From NCBI GenBank assembly GCA_050942625.1, contig JBMNNS010000001.1:8891-72890 (forward strand): DNA of 64,000 nucleotides, in the 5' to 3' direction. The position numbers and the translations under genes are program-made. Positions 9,334 through 15,653 of this stretch are shown here, one piece after another (the first letter of the stretch is position 1; each line of letters opens with the position of its first letter). This stretch comes from Dethiobacteria bacterium (GTDB lineage Bacteria > Bacillota > Dethiobacteria > DTU022 > UBA8154). Below the pieces are notes generated by a model. It was given only the letters and a program-made list of their open reading frames with translations. It was not told the origin of the DNA and ran no database searches.

Positions 9334-9382
9334 CGTTTCCCTCTCCCTGTTAAAATACTTCCTGGGCTAAAATATTTTGTTC

Positions 9383-9421
9383 CTGCCTGGGGCTATAAGG
9401 TCCTGTATCCCCAGGCAGGAT
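9383..9421 (-). other. Intra-operon stem-loop between panB and panC
   Basis: An 11-bp perfect stem, cctgcctgggg...ccccaggcagg, closes a 16-nt loop. The downstream U-tract is weak. Confidence 0.35.
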
Positions 9422-9508
9422 ATCCTGAAGGTATTACCTTCCCAGGTTTGTTATTTTCTATTTTTCGTTTTAACTTCAGGCTTCACAGGCCTGGACTGTT
9501 ACAATTAT

Positions 9509-10340: not shown

Positions 10341-11207
10341 TTAGCCTCCTAATAATTTTTTTAAGGCTTTTTGCCCTTCTTCCTGCAGGGTTCCTTTCCT
10401 AACGGCAAGCCCGGCAGTATAAATTCCCAGTTCTTTGTACAGCGGCAAAAAATCCGGGATTAGTTCCTTTAATTGTTTAAGATGAGCGCTAATAGTGGGA
10501 AGATCACCCCTGGCAATCGGGCCGGTTAAAGCTTTTTCAGTGCCAAGCTCCTTGATGTTTTTTAGTGTGGAATCAATAAGAGGGGATAGGGCTTCCATCG
10601 CCTGTCCAGCAGAAATCCCCATTGGCTCATACATCAAAAAAGCCATATCCATCAGTGAGGAAAGATAGTTACAGGCTACACATGCTGCCGCATGATAAAG
10701 GGCTTTCATTTCCGTGGGTATAGAAAGCATCTTTCCTTCCAGGGCTGTTACCAATTCCTCTGCAACAGGGTAGGCTTCCTTGTCTCCTTCTACAGCATAA
10801 TAGGTGCCCGGCAAGGAACGTATTCCCACTTCAAACCCTGGAAATGTTTGCAGGGGGTGAAAAGAGATTACTTGGGCACCTTCTTTACTTGCTGAAAGCA
10901 AAACACTGGAACTATGGGCTCCACTTGTATGCAAAACCAACTGTCCTTTTTTAAAAGCATCCCGAGCTGCCATTTGTTCACATACTTCCTCAATAAGACG
11001 ATCAGGGGTTGTAATAAACACTATTTCCGCATCTGCCGCAGCCTTTGCTGGATCATCAAAAACTGCACAGTCCAATAATCTGGCTGCTGTTTCCCTTGAA
11101 GCCTGAGTTTTAGCAGTAGCGGCCAGAATCCGGTAACCTTTTTCTTTCAAAGCATAACCCAGGACCTTTCCTACGTTTCCAGCACCAATGATTGATATTG
11201 TTTTCAT
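10341..11207 (-). CDS. Rossmann-fold NAD(P)-binding / DUF2520-type oxidoreductase, putative ketopantoate reductase (PanG-like)
   Basis: '[20 protein letters not shown]' is a GxGxxG dinucleotide fold. It is the first gene of the pan operon. The ORF-track start at 11261 is a GTG that runs through the upstream terminator hairpin, whereas the ATG at 11207 has the RBS AAGGTGG. Confidence 0.55.
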
Positions 11208-11221
11208 GACCACCTTACCCC

Positions 11222-11259
11222 GTATAAAATAATAAAGCCTTTCTGCCGAGCAGAAAGGC
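11222..11259 (-). terminator. Intrinsic terminator or attenuator hairpin immediately upstream of the pan-operon RBS
   Basis: Stem gcctttctg, loop ccgag, stem cagaaaggc (9 bp plus a 5-nt loop). On the minus strand it is followed by UUUAUUAUUUUAUAC. Confidence 0.55.
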
Positions 11260-11384
11260 ACAGTATGACCCTTTTCATGTACCCCTGTCCCGGTCCTGTA
11301 TCTGGCTCCAGGCAGAAAAAAAGGTTTATTGATTTGTTTTTTAAAAATTACGCTGGTGCAGGTTCCGGTTCCCGCCCAAAAAAT

Positions 11385-11413
11385 ATTTTACCATTTTTTA
11401 AAACAAGATGCAA
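11385..11413 (-). promoter_or_regulatory. Candidate sigma-A promoter driving the pan leader
   Basis: The minus strand reads TTGCAT, then a 17-nt spacer, then tgGTAAAAT. It is about 170 nt upstream of the panG-like ATG, so the terminator hairpin lies inside the predicted 5' leader. Confidence 0.4.
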
Positions 11414-11439
11414 GAACAAAATTGCTTATATTTAAGTTT

Positions 11440-12438
11440 TTACGGCCACTTATCCTTTAATATCTCCAATAATAGGGTAATACCGTTTTCTATGTCCTTC
11501 AGGTCGACTATTTCTGCCGGTGTATGTACATAGCGGCAGGGAATGGATAACACCCCGGCTGGAACACCCTCCCTGGAAAGATGAATTGCGCCGGCATCAG
11601 TGCCGCCCCTTTCTAGTATTTCCAATTGATAAGGAATTTTATTTTTCTCTGCAATTTCTATCATCCGGCCTGTCACCTCAGGATGACAAATGATAGATGA
11701 ATCTTTAATTTTTATGGCAGGACCTTTGCCCAGAGAAACCTCCATTTTGAATTCAGGTTTTGGTGTGTCGCCTACCCTGGTTACATCTACCGCTATCCCA
11801 TAGTCCGGTTTGAGGCGATATGCAATAGGGCCGGCCCCTCTGAGTCCAACCTCCTCCTGCACAGTAAAGACAAAATAAAGATTGTTTGGCAATGAATCCG
11901 GGACTTTTTTCAAGGTCTCCAACAAAACTGCGCAACCGACGCGGTTATCCAATGATTTGGCAACAATTCTGTCCCCATTTTGGTGAAAGGAGGCAAAAAA
12001 AGCAGCTGTATCACCTATTCTAACCATTTTCAGGGCTTCATCCCTATCTTTAGCCCCTATATCAATATATAATTTGTTTAGGGCCAGGTCTTTTCGTTGT
12101 TTAAGCTTTTCCTGCCCAATAACCCCGACTGTCCCATTACTAAAAATTACTTTAGAGCCAACCAGAGTGTTTAGCAGAAGGCCACCGATGTTGGTAAAAC
12201 GTAAAAACCCTTTTTCATCAATAAAGGTAACCATAAAACCGATTTCATCCATATGGGCTGCCAACAAAATGTCCTTTTTTGCAGCAGGGCTTTTTTTGAT
12301 TGCAACTAAATTTCCAAGGGGATCAATAAAGATTTCATCACAATACTTTTTTGCCTCTTCTTCAATCAATAAGCGTATTTTTTGCTCAGAACCTGCAGGC
12401 CCAAAGGTTGCGGTTAGCTTTTGAATTAAATCCCTCAT
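11440..12438 (-). CDS. M42 family metallo-aminopeptidase (TET/FrvX-like), paralogue 3
   Basis: It is 332 aa. 'AHMDEIGFMVT', 'LDNRVGC' and 'VQEEVGLRGA' are M42 metal-ligand motifs. Confidence 0.88.
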   Translation of the reverse strand: MRDLIQKLTATFGPAGSEQKIRLLIEEEAKKYCDEIFIDPLGNLVAIKKSPAAKKDILLAAHMDEIGFMVTFIDEKGFLRFTNIGGLLLNTLVGSKVIFSNGTVGVIGQEKLKQRKDLALNKLYIDIGAKDRDEALKMVRIGDTAAFFASFHQNGDRIVAKSLDNRVGCAVLLETLKKVPDSLPNNLYFVFTVQEEVGLRGAGPIAYRLKPDYGIAVDVTRVGDTPKPEFKMEVSLGKGPAIKIKDSSIICHPEVTGRMIEIAEKNKIPYQLEILERGGTDAGAIHLSREGVPAGVLSIPCRYVHTPAEIVDLKDIENGITLLLEILKDKWP

Positions 12439-12439
12439 T

Positions 12440-13459
12440 TTACAACCCCCTTATGTTAACTGATCTAATAAAGGAATCTACTATTTCCACAAGGTGTCTC
12501 CAATCATCAAGGCATAACTGAGAAACCGGTGTATGAATATAGCGGCAGGGCGTAGAAATCACACCGGAGATAACACCACCACGGGAAACTGAAACGGCTC
12601 CAGCATCAGTAAAGCTGCCGGTATAACGGCGAAATTGATAGGGCCTTTTTTCTTGCTCGGCTATTTCGATCAAACGCTCAAGAAGCTTAGGGTGCGTAAT
12701 AACTGAATTATCCATTAAGGTAAAAGCGGGACCAGAGCCCAGGGACGTAGAATGATCTTGTTCCTTAGCACCCGGCACATCAACCGCCAGCGTTGTTTCA
12801 ATGATGAGGGCAATCTCAGGTTTTACATGGTAAGCGGCTACTTTTGCCCCCCTAATTCCAACCTCCTCCTGGACTGTAAAGACTGCGGTAAAGTTAAAGG
12901 GGTAATCCCTTTTTAGGATCTGCAACAGAGCTGCACACCCTGCCCTGTTGTCCAGCGCTTTGCCCCTGAAATAATGGTCAGTGCTTTCTGCTGTGGTATC
13001 AAAAGTAACGTAATCACCTATTTTGACATGCTTTTCGGCCTCTTCCTTATTTTTTACACCAATATCAATATATAATTGCTCAACTTCCAGTGTTTTTTGG
13101 CGTTCTTCTTTTTTTTGCAGGTGAATGGCTTTAGCACCAATCACACCACTAATACCGCGGGAACCAATTTTAACGGGCTTGGAAACAAGAAAATCCTTGT
13201 TAACCCCACCTACTAAATAAAAACGCAGGTGGCCGTTTTTTTCTATGGAGGAAATCATTAAACCAACCTCATCCATATGGGCAGAAAGCATAAGGCTTTG
13301 TTCCCCAGCAGTTCCCCCTTCTTTGAAGGCATACAGATTACCCATGGTGTCCACATAATTTTTTATACCCCAGGCCTCCAATTTTTCTCTAATAAAATTT
13401 CTAACCCTTCTTTCATCACCGGAAACACCACTTATTTGGGAAAGTTCTTTTAGATACAT
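12440..13459 (-). CDS. M42 family metallo-aminopeptidase, paralogue 2
   Basis: It is 339 aa. 'AHMDEVGLMIS', 'LDNRAGC' and 'VQEEVGIRGA' are present. Confidence 0.88.
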   Translation of the reverse strand: MYLKELSQISGVSGDERRVRNFIREKLEAWGIKNYVDTMGNLYAFKEGGTAGEQSLMLSAHMDEVGLMISSIEKNGHLRFYLVGGVNKDFLVSKPVKIGSRGISGVIGAKAIHLQKKEERQKTLEVEQLYIDIGVKNKEEAEKHVKIGDYVTFDTTAESTDHYFRGKALDNRAGCAALLQILKRDYPFNFTAVFTVQEEVGIRGAKVAAYHVKPEIALIIETTLAVDVPGAKEQDHSTSLGSGPAFTLMDNSVITHPKLLERLIEIAEQEKRPYQFRRYTGSFTDAGAVSVSRGGVISGVISTPCRYIHTPVSQLCLDDWRHLVEIVDSFIRSVNIRGL

Positions 13460-14502
13460 CTTAATCCCTCCACAAATTCCTCATCTATCCCTGCTACAAA
13501 ATAAGCAAGCAACCTGCCGGCAACCCTGATATCCTCCAGGTCAACCAGCTCAACGGAAGTATGCATGTAGCGTAATGGTATAGAAAGAAGCCCGGTTGGT
13601 ACACCTTCCAGGCTTACCTGGATAGCCCTGGCATCAGTTCCGGTAGGGCCTGGGGAAATATCCTTCTGGCAAGGAAGATGATATTCATGGGCGATTTGCT
13701 GTAGTTTTTCAGCAACATGGGGATGTATGTTTGGTCCATAGGTGACAACCGGTCCTTTACCCAGCTCAGAAACTTCATGTTCCGCTGCCCCCGGAAAATT
13801 GCCATGGCAAACATCGATAGCAATACCGATATCAGGGGCAATACCATATGTCGAAGTTATGGCACCCCTTACGCCCACTTCTTCCTGGACAGTCGCCACC
13901 ATATAAACATCAGCTTCGTGGTTAATACGGGTTAGCTCTTGCAGGCATTGCCATAAAACCGCCACCCCGGCACGATCATCGAGTGCTTTACCGGCCCGGC
14001 ATTTATTCTGGAGGGTAAGAAATTTTCTTTTAATAGCCACAACATTTCCAGGTTTGATAAGCTCACGAACTACTTCCGCCGGAAGGCCGGTGTCAATAAA
14101 CAAATCTTCCATTTTGACACCCTTACCTTTTTCCGAGGCTTTTTTTAGGTGAGGTGCCTTAAAACCAATTATACCAGTCACAGGCTTTTGACCATATACA
14201 GTCACTTCCTGACCTGTTAGGGTACGCTGATCAAAACCCCCAATAGCTGTAAAGCGCAGGAAACCTTCGTCTTCCAACCTGGTAACCATTAGCCCAATTT
14301 CATCCATATGGGCACATAAAATGATCCTTGGCCTCCCTTTTCCCTTTCCTTTTTTATATAGAATAAGGTTTCCCAGACTATCTTTTCTGATACTATCCAA
14401 TTGGGGAGCAAAAATATTTTTAATATAGTTACTTACGTCTTTTTCAAAACCTGAAACACCATCTATTTCTGTTATTTTTTGTAACAGATCATGCAAATCC
14501 AA
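13450..14502 (-). CDS. M42 family metallo-aminopeptidase, paralogue 1
   Basis: It is 350 aa. 'AHMDEIGLMVT', 'LDDRAGV' and 'VQEEVGVRGA' are present. Confidence 0.88.
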   Translation of the reverse strand: MDLHDLLQKITEIDGVSGFEKDVSNYIKNIFAPQLDSIRKDSLGNLILYKKGKGKGRPRIILCAHMDEIGLMVTRLEDEGFLRFTAIGGFDQRTLTGQEVTVYGQKPVTGIIGFKAPHLKKASEKGKGVKMEDLFIDTGLPAEVVRELIKPGNVVAIKRKFLTLQNKCRAGKALDDRAGVAVLWQCLQELTRINHEADVYMVATVQEEVGVRGAITSTYGIAPDIGIAIDVCHGNFPGAAEHEVSELGKGPVVTYGPNIHPHVAEKLQQIAHEYHLPCQKDISPGPTGTDARAIQVSLEGVPTGLLSIPLRYMHTSVELVDLEDIRVAGRLLAYFVAGIDEEFVEGLRCI

Positions 14503-14546: not shown

Positions 14547-15653
14547 CTAAGTTTGTTTGTTTTGCTCTGGGAAGTTATTATAAAGTATTTCTTGTAGTTC
14601 CCTGGTAACTGCATAAACTTTTTCGGCCTGGGGGATGGTTAGGGTCCCTGTGCCGCAACTGGGTGTAATTAAATACTGTTTTGTTAAAAGCCCGGGATCA
14701 ACCCCCTTCTGTGCCAGGCGCTGCACCAAGGCATAAAACCTTTCCTTTAAAGATTGGGCATTTTCCTTTTCAATAGCTTCCGAGGTTGGAACGATGCCCC
14801 AGGCCAGACAGCCGCCCCGGCGCAAAAAGGAGTTCAATTCTTCAGCATAGACTAGCATGGAATCAAAATAGTTATAAGCATCAAAATTAATAATATCAAA
14901 GGGCAACTCCAGTAAAAGGGACCAGTCCACCCCAGAACAACAATGTACGCCTGCATAAGCATCTTCAGCTTTGATTGCAAAAAGGACATCTTCAATACTG
15001 GCAGATATGTCATCCCTTGAGAGGGAAATAAAGGAAGATTGGCCATAGCAGTATATTGCTGGATCGTCAATAAAGATTACTACAGGTAAGGAATGTTTTT
15101 TTAATTCCCGTATCTGGGCCCTTGATATTAAAGCTAAAAGCTTATTAATGATATCCCGCAGTTCTTCTTCATAAAAAGCAACAGTACCGTCTTCTGTACT
15201 AATCTGTAAACCAATGGTAAGTGGCCCACCAACATGGCCTTTTAGAAAGGCAGGCCTTTTCCCAGGTTTATCCCATTTTTCTTTTAAAAAAGCGTAAAAA
15301 CCTGCTGCCGCATCGGCAGGAAAAGAAAAAAAAGAAAGTACTTCTTCCTTTCCCTTGCCCTCTTCTAAAGAATCCAAATAAAATTGATAAAACTGTTCAA
15401 GCTTACCTAACCAGCCCTTCTCTTTGTTAAGGAAAAAAGGTGTATCATCTTTTTCTATTTCAAGCATTTTTAATTTTACCAGCGGGGTCAAATTTTGCCT
15501 GACAAAACTTTCTTTTCTTCCACGTTTTGGGAGTTGGGGCCAGTGTGGTCCATGGGGCAAATATTCTTTTATAAGATCTATAGCTTGATCAGCTTCCTGA
15601 TGGGGTGTACTTCCAACGCCTGTTGCTAAACCATAAAGAAATCCATTCTGCAA
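14547..15653 (-). CDS. MetE C-terminal-domain-like (Meth_synt_2 / URO-D-like fold) zinc methyltransferase-family protein; substrate unknown
   Basis: It is 368 aa. 'VVIFIDDPA' resembles the MetE 'IQIDEPA' motif, 'GVHCCSG' resembles the 'HMCY' Zn-ligand His-x-Cys, and 'ITPSCGTG' resembles 'PDCGL'. There is no N-terminal MetE domain. Confidence 0.4.
   Translation of the reverse strand: MQNGFLYGLATGVGSTPHQEADQAIDLIKEYLPHGPHWPQLPKRGRKESFVRQNLTPLVKLKMLEIEKDDTPFFLNKEKGWLGKLEQFYQFYLDSLEEGKGKEEVLSFFSFPADAAAGFYAFLKEKWDKPGKRPAFLKGHVGGPLTIGLQISTEDGTVAFYEEELRDIINKLLALISRAQIRELKKHSLPVVIFIDDPAIYCYGQSSFISLSRDDISASIEDVLFAIKAEDAYAGVHCCSGVDWSLLLELPFDIINFDAYNYFDSMLVYAEELNSFLRRGGCLAWGIVPTSEAIEKENAQSLKERFYALVQRLAQKGVDPGLLTKQYLITPSCGTGTLTIPQAEKVYAVTRELQEILYNNFPEQNKQT

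Follow-up and report, generated by a model that had tools for sequence, protein, structure and literature searches.

A pan-motif leader with a predicted attenuation terminator ahead of the pantothenate operon of a Dethiobacteria bacterium

The pantothenate (pan) operon in the window, a 64-kb stretch (64,000 nucleotides) of a Dethiobacteria contig, is preceded by a leader of about 170 nt that contains a terminator-like hairpin. This arrangement raises the question of whether the leader is a regulatory RNA, and if so of which kind, or whether the hairpin only closes the upstream cimA-to-M42 transcription unit. The promoter, hairpins, terminator, ribosome-binding site (RBS) and pan genes all lie on the minus strand. 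The first gene (11207-10341) encodes an oxidoreductase with Rossmann-like and DUF2520 domains (Pfam PF10727 and PF10728), which is probably a PanG-type ketopantoate reductase, a homology that follows the description in PMC4572677. It is followed by panB (10336-9509; PF02548), panC (9333-8488; PF02569) and panD (8484-8119; PF02261), whose Pfam matches have E-values between 1e-55 and 1e-118. Of the 80 PanB loci that we compared, most have the reductase gene in first place, ahead of panB.

Reading of the sequence revealed a -35-like hexamer, TTGCAT (11413-11408), separated by a 17-nt spacer from an extended -10 element, TGgTAAAAT (11393-11385), as the earlier note on this DNA had reported for a position about 170 nt upstream of the first pan gene. 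Because the -35 hexamer agrees with TTGACA at only 3/6 positions, the promoter is missing from the list produced by a consensus scan, and the grade of "good" given to this predicted promoter rests on the extended -10 element, not on the -35. In a comparison of 13 related leaders, little or no variation was seen in the TTG of the -35 or in the TG-TA--AT of the -10, and these elements stand 5-8 nt ahead of hairpin 1 in every one of them, whereas the sequence farther upstream varies. Transcription most likely starts from this conserved extended -10 promoter near 11378, at the base of hairpin 1, and the distance from there to the ATG at 11207 accounts for the leader length of about 170 nt.

Rfam analysis revealed a match to the pan motif (RF01749) at 11378-11281, covering hairpin 1, the linker, hairpin 2 and the 3' GG, with a score of 47.1 bits (gathering score 36.2) and an E-value of 4.8e-5 over the whole 64-kb window; the match is full length (model positions 1-92 of 92). 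The pan motif was described by Weinberg et al. in 2010 (Genome Biol 11:R31) as tandem hairpins with two bulged A residues each, located upstream of panB, panC or panD; according to that paper (PMC2864571), the tandem form is typical outside the delta-proteobacteria, which have one hairpin, and the motif occurs in three phyla, Firmicutes among them. The window contains the tandem arrangement, with hairpin 1 at 11378-11354 and hairpin 2 at 11315-11285, and in each hairpin both strands of the stem have one unpaired A residue, the two lying on either side of a 5-bp helix. Hairpin 1 (UGG-GCGGG-A-(ACCGGAA)-CCUGC-A-CCA; unpaired A at 11370 and 11357) has an energy of -10.2 kcal/mol (z = -2.1) and is conserved among relatives; in this clade it has no upper stem, and its 5' unpaired A therefore falls within an 8-nt loop. 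Hairpin 2 (CUG-CCUGG-A-GCC...GGA-CCGGG-A-CAG; bulged A at 11307 and 11288) has an energy of -10.4 kcal/mol and also satisfies the strict hairpin descriptor that we built for this analysis. Between them lies an A/U-rich linker of 38 nt (11353-11316), neither the sequence nor the length of which is conserved in relatives. The same-strand DUF2520 reductase gene, panB, panC and panD follow downstream of the leader, the genomic setting expected for RF01749. By this match, the leader is a typical representative of a known orphan motif; it is a genuine feature, but not the undescribed RNA that the earlier note had considered possible.

Other assignments for the region were rejected. The PyrR binding site (RF00515) scored 24.7 bits, below its gathering score of 54 (E = 0.28), with the alignment lying mostly on the terminator, and a match to IS009 was below threshold. 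Our own hairpin descriptor has a background in the window of about 0.23 hits per kb on each strand and gave 217 hits on the sense strand versus 82 on the control strand in the PanB loci; because of this background, single descriptor hits were not trusted without positional or Rfam support. The 3' end of the linker, CCUUUUUUU (11324-11316), can pair with GAAAAGGG (11276-11269), and the whole leader, when folded to minimum energy, contains this helix, which would extend hairpin 2; some relatives have similar U-rich/purine-rich pairings at positions that are not conserved, and we keep the helix as a possibility only.

The terminator predicted from the sequence begins about 25 nt 3' of hairpin 2. 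It consists of a G+C-rich hairpin, GCCUUUCUGC-UCG-GCAGAAAGGC (11259-11237; 10 bp, 6 G-C pairs, 3-nt loop), directly followed by the U-tract UUUAUUAUUUUAUAC (11236-11222), with 11 U in 15 nt, as is characteristic of intrinsic (Rho-independent) terminators. The GC-rich hairpin and U-tract noted earlier are thus present, although the stem has 10 bp rather than 9 and ends 17 nt, not about 15 nt, before the RBS. The hairpin energy is -16.4 kcal/mol (z = -5.2), which none of 200 shuffled sequences equalled. Five terminator-like patterns were found in a 5-kb stretch against 6.6 expected, so that as a class they are not above chance; the significance of the predicted terminator at 11259-11237 comes from its strength and from its conservation in 16/16 related leaders checked, in all of which it is located after hairpin 2. 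In these 16 leaders, 95.8% of the terminator cells are paired and four pairs change on both sides.

The RBS, GGUAAGGUGG (11219-11210), and the ATG start codon (11207-11205) were read in the sequence downstream of the U-tract, and the protein N-terminus is the same as in relatives. A longer open reading frame from GTG 11261 was dropped in favour of ATG 11207, since it starts inside the terminator and its extra residues are missing in relatives. A 24-codon upstream open reading frame (ATG 11278, with an ATGA ending on the gene start) was taken as a chance occurrence, since it has counterparts only in loci L007 and L010 and is not conserved.

Comparison across relatives, which the earlier note had suggested, revealed that the order of promoter, hairpin 1, variable linker, hairpin 2 and terminator is common to 14/14 of the closest loci. 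The RF01749 threshold was passed by 9/14 of these loci and by 11/14 more distant Firmicutes loci, so that 20/28 related loci carry the motif above threshold at the same position. In 16 related leaders, 89.8% of the cells of hairpin 2 alone are paired; for hairpin 2 and the terminator together, the value is 92.5%, compared with 30-63% when the partners are slid, and seven pairs change on both sides. The stem sequences of the pan hairpins differ widely between clades. An additional metagenome scan with the exact hairpin-2 pattern yielded 120 matches, of which about 13-15 are real pan leaders and were used as independent lineages, while the remaining matches were rejected as chance occurrences in G+C-rich coding DNA.

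These comparisons bear on the reading in which the hairpin is a mere terminator of the cimA-to-M42 unit, the pan-like hairpins play no part in regulation, and the pan genes depend on the promoter or on unregulated read-through. There is no other terminator between the M42 stop codon (11440) and the promoter or the terminator hairpin, and for this reason upstream transcripts would also meet the pan-leader terminator and either end there or read through; the weak -35, with its 3/6 positions, is likewise compatible with such a reading. Against it, the promoter elements, unlike their flanks, are conserved and keep a fixed spacing to hairpin 1, the Rfam motif sits between promoter and terminator, and across the 80 PanB loci the leader goes with the pan operon, not with the upstream M42 genes. 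Pan hairpins with a terminator also stand ahead of pan operons that have other upstream genes in Pelotomaculum, Desulfovirgula, Neobacillus, Selenomonadales and metagenomic lineages, and several independent lineages have a terminator after their last pan hairpin. Moreover, transcriptome studies of Bacillus place the pan motif within the mapped 5' untranslated region of panB, and in the 2010 seed alignment a terminator is annotated in Caldicellulosiruptor before what seems to be the same Rossmann-type first gene (PMC2864571). Because the leader order is conserved and the motif recurs without upstream M42 genes, we assign the terminator to the pan leader and not only to the upstream unit, and we regard the purely upstream explanation as very improbable. 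The general classification of the region as an attenuator or riboswitch holds, in that it appears to be a cis-regulatory leader, close to its promoter and read out by an intrinsic terminator.

RNAduplex and nascent-transcript folding suggested a pairing that may compete with the terminator. The 5' strand of this proposed antiterminator is made up of CCGGG-A-CAG of hairpin 2 together with GGGUACA (11293-11278), and its 3' strand, UGUGCCUU followed by CUGCUCGG (11262-11246), extends over most of the terminator 5' arm and through the loop to the opening base of the 3' arm; its CUGCUCGG part is similar to the 5' strand of hairpin 2, CUGCCUGG. The duplex between 11293-11278 and 11262-11247 has an RNAduplex energy of -16.2 kcal/mol, and with z = -1.08 and 16% of shuffles equally good it is not individually significant in the window. 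Across leaders, the duplex of the hairpin 2 3' strand and its flank with the terminator 5' arm was better than shuffles in 20/22 cases, with a mean z of about -1.4. The nascent-transcript fold of the window through 11244 forms the antiterminator helix at -19.3 kcal/mol (z = -2.1).

In 16 relatives, the six core antiterminator pairs are standard in 69-94%, and all eight pairs average 76.6%, compared with 38-51% when the partners are slid. No compensatory changes in antiterminator pairs were found within the clade (the same 16 relatives), a test without power, since the 3' strand of hairpin 2 does not vary there. The terminator 5' arm sequence GUGCCUUCCUG is kept throughout the clade, unlike the linker. 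A second clade, which was misaligned by MAFFT and was therefore compared by hand and by duplex energies, has CCGAG-A-CGG in hairpin 2 together with the terminator arm CCUUUCGG, so that complementarity is preserved. The antiterminator is also strong in three distant loci (L125, L020 and L062).

In several lineages the extended antiterminator uses up the 3' strand of hairpin 2, making the two structures mutually exclusive there. A boundary-matched control in the window gave a minimum-energy nascent fold that retains hairpin 2 beside a shorter antiterminator (ddG = 0), and over 26 leaders the native ddG was 2.0 kcal/mol versus 1.1 kcal/mol for shuffled arms. The idea that the antiterminator must unzip hairpin 2 was not robust to this control and was set aside. 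In these folding models of the window, hairpin 2 and the antiterminator appear weakly coupled, to a degree that varies with the point at which the transcript is cut.

Taken together, we consider it likely that this is the pan-motif leader of a panG-like-panB-panC-panD operon and that it acts by effector-controlled OFF transcription attenuation. The GGGUACA that directly follows hairpin 2 would pair in the nascent RNA with the terminator 5' arm to form the antiterminator, joined in an extended form by the 3' strand of hairpin 2, and transcription would then read through into the pan genes. An effector reporting pantothenate or CoA sufficiency would bind and lock the hairpins, weakening or blocking the antiterminator; the terminator would then form and a transcript of about 150 nt would be released.

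The direction of this switch was weighed against its reverse, in which termination is the default and hairpins bound by an effector signalling pantothenate or CoA shortage prevent it. Such ON logic would agree with the terminator state being by far the most stable fold of the full-length leader, and with the ability of hairpin 2 and the short antiterminator to coexist in the window, where a bound factor could in principle stabilise the antiterminator. It conflicts with the consumption of the hairpin 2 3' strand by the extended antiterminator in several lineages and with the end-product repression that is usual for biosynthetic operons. Clostridium leaders have a further pan-type hairpin, the last one, that holds the Shine-Dalgarno sequence in its 3' strand; OFF logic is favoured because stabilising this hairpin can only repress translation. 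We therefore find ON logic improbable.

As to the effector, the tandem hairpins could be a true riboswitch, with a small molecule of the pantothenate/CoA pathway (pantoate, ketopantoate, 4'-phosphopantothenate, 4'-phosphopantetheine, dephospho-CoA or an acyl-CoA) binding the RNA directly, perhaps at the interface of the two hairpins, and triggering termination. The layout is the classic one, a conserved structured leader with predicted alternative pairing and a terminator before a biosynthetic operon; the same hairpins carry different read-outs (terminator or RBS sequestration) by lineage, as riboswitches do; and guanidine-II provides a precedent for two small tandem hairpins. Apart from the unpaired A residues, on the other hand, almost no nucleotide is conserved, the stems covary freely and the loops vary in length and sequence, which leaves little material for a ligand pocket. 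Hairpin copy number, from one in delta-proteobacteria to apparently three in Clostridium, is also unusual for an aptamer. In-line probing of a Geobacter pan RNA with 1 mM pantothenate, CoA or beta-alanine left the cleavage pattern unchanged, a negative result that, according to its authors, does not rule out a ligand (PMC2864571), and this probing covered only three compounds on one single-hairpin construct. The same three compounds are among the four that the earlier note had named for in-line probing. In the searchable literature of the 16 years since the 2010 description, we found no functional study or validation of the pan motif, only transcriptome catalogues. On balance, we hold direct ligand sensing to be unlikely, less so than ON logic.

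A protein effector agrees better with the features of the motif. Its describers proposed a dimeric RNA-binding protein and thought protein binding likelier than ligand binding (PMC2864571). In our comparison, the quasi-symmetric, sequence-poor hairpins of variable copy number appear to fit protein binding better than a small-molecule aptamer, and the variable copy number itself fits a modular protein-binding site.

For the window, the outcome is mainly one of annotation, namely a pan operon with its own promoter and a predicted pan-motif attenuator, not a new RNA class. More broadly, 16 years after its description the pan motif remains an orphan, and no regulator of pantothenate biosynthesis acting through it was found in the literature. 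Three comparative observations narrow the search for the effector: the conserved complementary terminator arm, the matched change of both partners in the second clade and the Clostridium RBS hairpin, all of which point to repression upon stabilisation of the hairpins. If direct small-molecule sensing were nevertheless true, the leader would belong to the first riboswitch class for vitamin B5 or coenzyme A metabolism, and two sequence-poor hairpins with unpaired A residues would, by analogy with guanidine-II, jointly form the pocket.

Compared with known systems, the leader shows no essential difference from the pan motif RF01749, sharing the tandem hairpins with two unpaired A residues each, the position in the 5' leader of a pantothenate operon and a Firmicute (Dethiobacteria-like) host. 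A terminator follows the motif here as in at least one sequence of the seed alignment, whereas the antiterminator proposed here is absent from the accessible part of the 2010 description (PMC2864571). Further differences are the missing upper stem of hairpin 1 in this clade and the first regulated gene, which is the DUF2520-type reductase rather than panB. In the PyrR attenuator of the Bacillus pyr operon (RF00515), an end-product-sensing factor binds an anti-antiterminator hairpin, the antiterminator is prevented and the terminator forms. This is the same logic as in the favoured pan model, although the hairpin architecture differs and a binding protein is known for pyr but not for pan. RAT hairpins, single elements before sugar-utilisation genes, are bound by LicT/SacY/BglG dimers, and binding stabilises the antiterminator (ON). 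Like the pan hairpins, they are short, with two similar interruptions and a quasi two-fold symmetry suited to a protein dimer, and like the pan leader they overlap a terminator; they differ in being single and ON, where the pan hairpins are tandem and OFF logic is favoured, and no CAT/PRD protein is implicated for the pan leader. Guanidine-II (mini-ykkC) RNAs, pairs of small tandem hairpins for which protein binding was at one time suspected, bind a small ligand, and they resemble the pan motif in seeming too simple for an aptamer. Their hairpins have strictly conserved, mutually interacting ACGR loops, whereas the pan loops are variable and the conserved features of the pan motif are the unpaired A residues in the stem.

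The whole window was scanned against Rfam, which returned two matches: a full-length 6S RNA elsewhere (RF00013, 47685–47862, minus strand, 95 bits) and a full-length match to RF01749, the 'pan motif', at 11378–11281 (minus strand), with a score of 47.1 bits against a gathering score of 36.2. The match comprises hairpin 1 at 11378–11354 (UGG-GCGGG-A-(loop)-CCUGC-A-CCA) and hairpin 2 at 11315–11285 (CUG-CCUGG-A-GCC...GGA-CCGGG-A-CAG), both on the minus strand. Weinberg et al. 2010 (PMC2864571) described the motif as mostly tandem and present in three phyla, with B. subtilis among the carriers; their in-line probing of a pan RNA revealed no modulation, a ligand still being possible according to the authors. 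Two Bacillus transcriptome papers place the pan motif in the panB 5' UTR, and no functional study of the motif after 2010 was found in the searchable literature. All testable defining features place the leader in the pan motif. Given the RF01749 match and the 2010 description, it is an already described cis-regulatory RNA; the earlier note assigned it correctly to the attenuator or riboswitch category, but its suggestion of an undescribed RNA is refuted. The instance is ordinary and, for finding the pan effector, offers nothing beyond B. subtilis.

All features of the pan leader lie on the minus strand. After the end of the third and last M42 peptidase gene (11440) comes a promoter-like site, TTGCAT (11413–11408), 17 nt and TGgTAAAAT (11393–11385), with GGUAAGGUGG and ATG 11207 about 170 nt further on. 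Its -35 element agrees with the consensus at only 3/6 positions, which explains its absence from the consensus-scan listing. The intrinsic terminator hairpin GCCUUUCUGC-UCG-GCAGAAAGGC (11259–11237), followed by UUUAUUAUUUUAUAC, folded at -16.4 kcal/mol, a value equalled or bettered by 0/200 shuffles. The initial description of a promoter, a terminator within the leader and the pan genes was accurate, except that the hairpin has 10 bp, not 9. Because no terminator is present between the M42 stop and the promoter in the window, upstream transcription that reads through would also be subject to this attenuator.

The comparison of the leader across related genomes that had been proposed was based on a PanB search with one genome per species, which gave 80 loci (numbered L); the closest belonged to Dethiobacteria and Syntrophomonadaceae genome bins with 65–83% PanB identity. 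All 14 of the closest loci shared the same order about 1 kb upstream of panB: promoter, hairpin 1, linker, hairpin 2, short spacer, terminator with U-tract, RBS and DUF2520 gene. The linker was conserved in neither sequence nor length in these loci. The Rfam threshold was passed in 9/14, the remaining five showing both hairpins by eye, and at the equivalent position in 11/14 more distant loci, including Clostridium, Pelotomaculum, Desulfovirgula, Neobacillus, Roseburia and Selenomonadales. In relatives, the -35 TTG and the -10 TG-TA--AT were invariant or nearly so and were located 5–8 nt before hairpin 1; sequence upstream of the promoter was not conserved. In an alignment of 16 leaders, hairpin 2 and the terminator were 92.5% paired versus 30–63% with slid partners, and seven pairs showed changes on both sides. 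No M42 gene lay upstream of the leader from L014 onward. The conserved order and promoter, the pan-motif matches in distant loci and this absence of M42 indicate that leader and terminator belong to the pan operon, contrary to the fallback reading that the hairpin only terminates an upstream cimA-to-M42 unit.

A strong terminator follows the structured motif in the window and in several independent lineages, and the 2010 seed alignment marks one in Caldicellulosiruptor, before apparently the same kind of first gene. The terminator 5' arm, GUGCCUUCCUG, is conserved across the clade, unlike the linker, and such clade-wide sequence conservation is unusual for a plain terminator. Four observations suggest an antiterminator: arm conservation, pairing in the window, pairing in 16 relatives and complementarity in other lineages. 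Its putative 5' strand (11293–11278, minus) consists of CCGGG-A-CAG of hairpin 2 plus GGGUACA, and its putative 3' strand (11262–11246, minus), UGUGCCUU..CUGCUCGG, spans most of the terminator 5' arm, its loop and one base more; CUGCUCGG is similar to hairpin 2's own 5' strand, CUGCCUGG. In the window, this duplex had an energy of -16.2 kcal/mol, and the nascent transcript to 11244 folded into the antiterminator helix at -19.3 kcal/mol (z = -2.1). Among the 16 relatives, the six core pairs were standard in 69–94% of sequences, all eight averaged 76.6% standard versus 38–51% for slid partners, and terminator loop bases 1–3 were pyrimidines facing GGG in most. In a second clade (L017, L019, L024, L053), hairpin 2 carries CCGAG-A-CGG and the terminator arm carries CCUUUCGG, so that complementarity is kept, and competition between hairpin 2 and the antiterminator is clear in the distant leaders L125, L020 and L062. 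Since hairpin 2 would share a strand with the antiterminator, its stabilisation should disfavour the antiterminator and favour termination (OFF).

In the window alone the antiterminator was not significant (z = -1.08), and under a boundary-matched control the minimum-energy nascent fold was hairpin 2 plus a shorter antiterminator (ddG = 0). Across 26 leaders, the gain from opening hairpin 2 was 2.0 kcal/mol for native versus 1.1 for shuffled arms, and no compensatory changes in antiterminator pairs were found within the clade. Window state energies were about -18.7 kcal/mol for hairpin 2 plus an extra helix (linker 3' end with 11276–11269), -20.5 kcal/mol for hairpin 2 plus the short antiterminator and -21.4 to -24.3 kcal/mol for the full antiterminator; these close values fit, but do not prove, a poised switch.

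Nine loci of Clostridium and relatives (L016, L035, L050, L054, L061, L063, L066, L068, L075) carry a further pan-type hairpin directly before the DUF2520 gene, in addition to the two that the Rfam model describes, with stems that covary between species (for example L068:4126–4155, AGU-GUCAC-A-CUC..GAG-GUGAU-A-AUU). Its 3' strand, GGAGGUGAU, is the Shine-Dalgarno sequence, with the start codon 0–3 nt on, so this hairpin, through which the same regulator would act on translation, lends independent support to the OFF logic. Several of the nine have AUA or AUU, not AUG, at the start position. Six Lachnospiraceae loci (L022, L026, L037, L039, L041, L078) have, instead of a terminator, a small hairpin, CUUCC-GAAA-GGAGG, after the pan hairpins and 20–40 nt upstream of the start of the DUF2520 gene (for L026, the copy that immediately follows hairpin 2); its predicted sequestration of the RBS gives the pan motif a further kind of read-out.

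The gene opened by ATG 11207 (10341–11207, minus) encodes a Rossmann-like+DUF2520 oxidoreductase without an NCBIfam equivalog and is followed by panB, panC and panD. In most of the 80 loci it takes the same place ahead of panB, and it probably encodes a ketopantoate reductase of the PanG type, like that described in Francisella (FTT1388; cited in PMC4572677). A 24-codon upstream ORF (11204–11278, minus; ATG 11278) extends across the terminator and overlaps the gene start by ATGA; it was rejected as a real feature and probably reflects chance given the conserved GGUACAUG, because comparable ORFs occur only in L007 and L010. The panB-panC spacer (9334–9508) measures 175 nt, exceeding the ~50 nt of the closest relatives by about 120 nt, and contains a perfect 12-bp hairpin, UCCUGCCUGGGG/CCCCAGGCAGGA (9381–9420, minus), with no Rfam family match. 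The sequence of pan hairpin 2 recurs in its 5' arm and loop (CTGCCTGG, then GATACAGGACC), though the unpaired A residues are absent, and the shared 11-mer is found nowhere else in the window. This spacer hairpin may have arisen by partial duplication of hairpin 2, or it may serve as an internal element for processing or stability. Directly upstream of the leader lie three consecutive M42 peptidase paralogues (11440–14502, minus); the 14 closest relatives, unlike more distant ones, retain the last of these ahead of their pan operon, and in L008, about 1.1 kb separates it from the leader. A 368-aa ORF (14547–15653, minus) between the citramalate-synthase-like gene and the M42 genes had no match in Pfam or NCBIfam.

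Conservation in pan hairpins is limited to the unpaired A residues and the geometry, whereas stems covary freely and loops vary; each hairpin is quasi-symmetric, with an unpaired A at the end of both strands of its central 5-bp helix, and copy number ranges from one to apparently three. This sparse conservation, the quasi-symmetry and the variable copy number incline us towards a protein as effector and make a metabolite rather unlikely, although guanidine-II is a precedent for keeping a ligand in view. In the favoured model, the pan leader would resemble the PyrR attenuator in its way of working, but it is no PyrR site (24.7 bits versus 54). The quasi-symmetric pan hairpin also recalls the RAT elements bound by LicT/SacY dimers, which follow the opposite logic.
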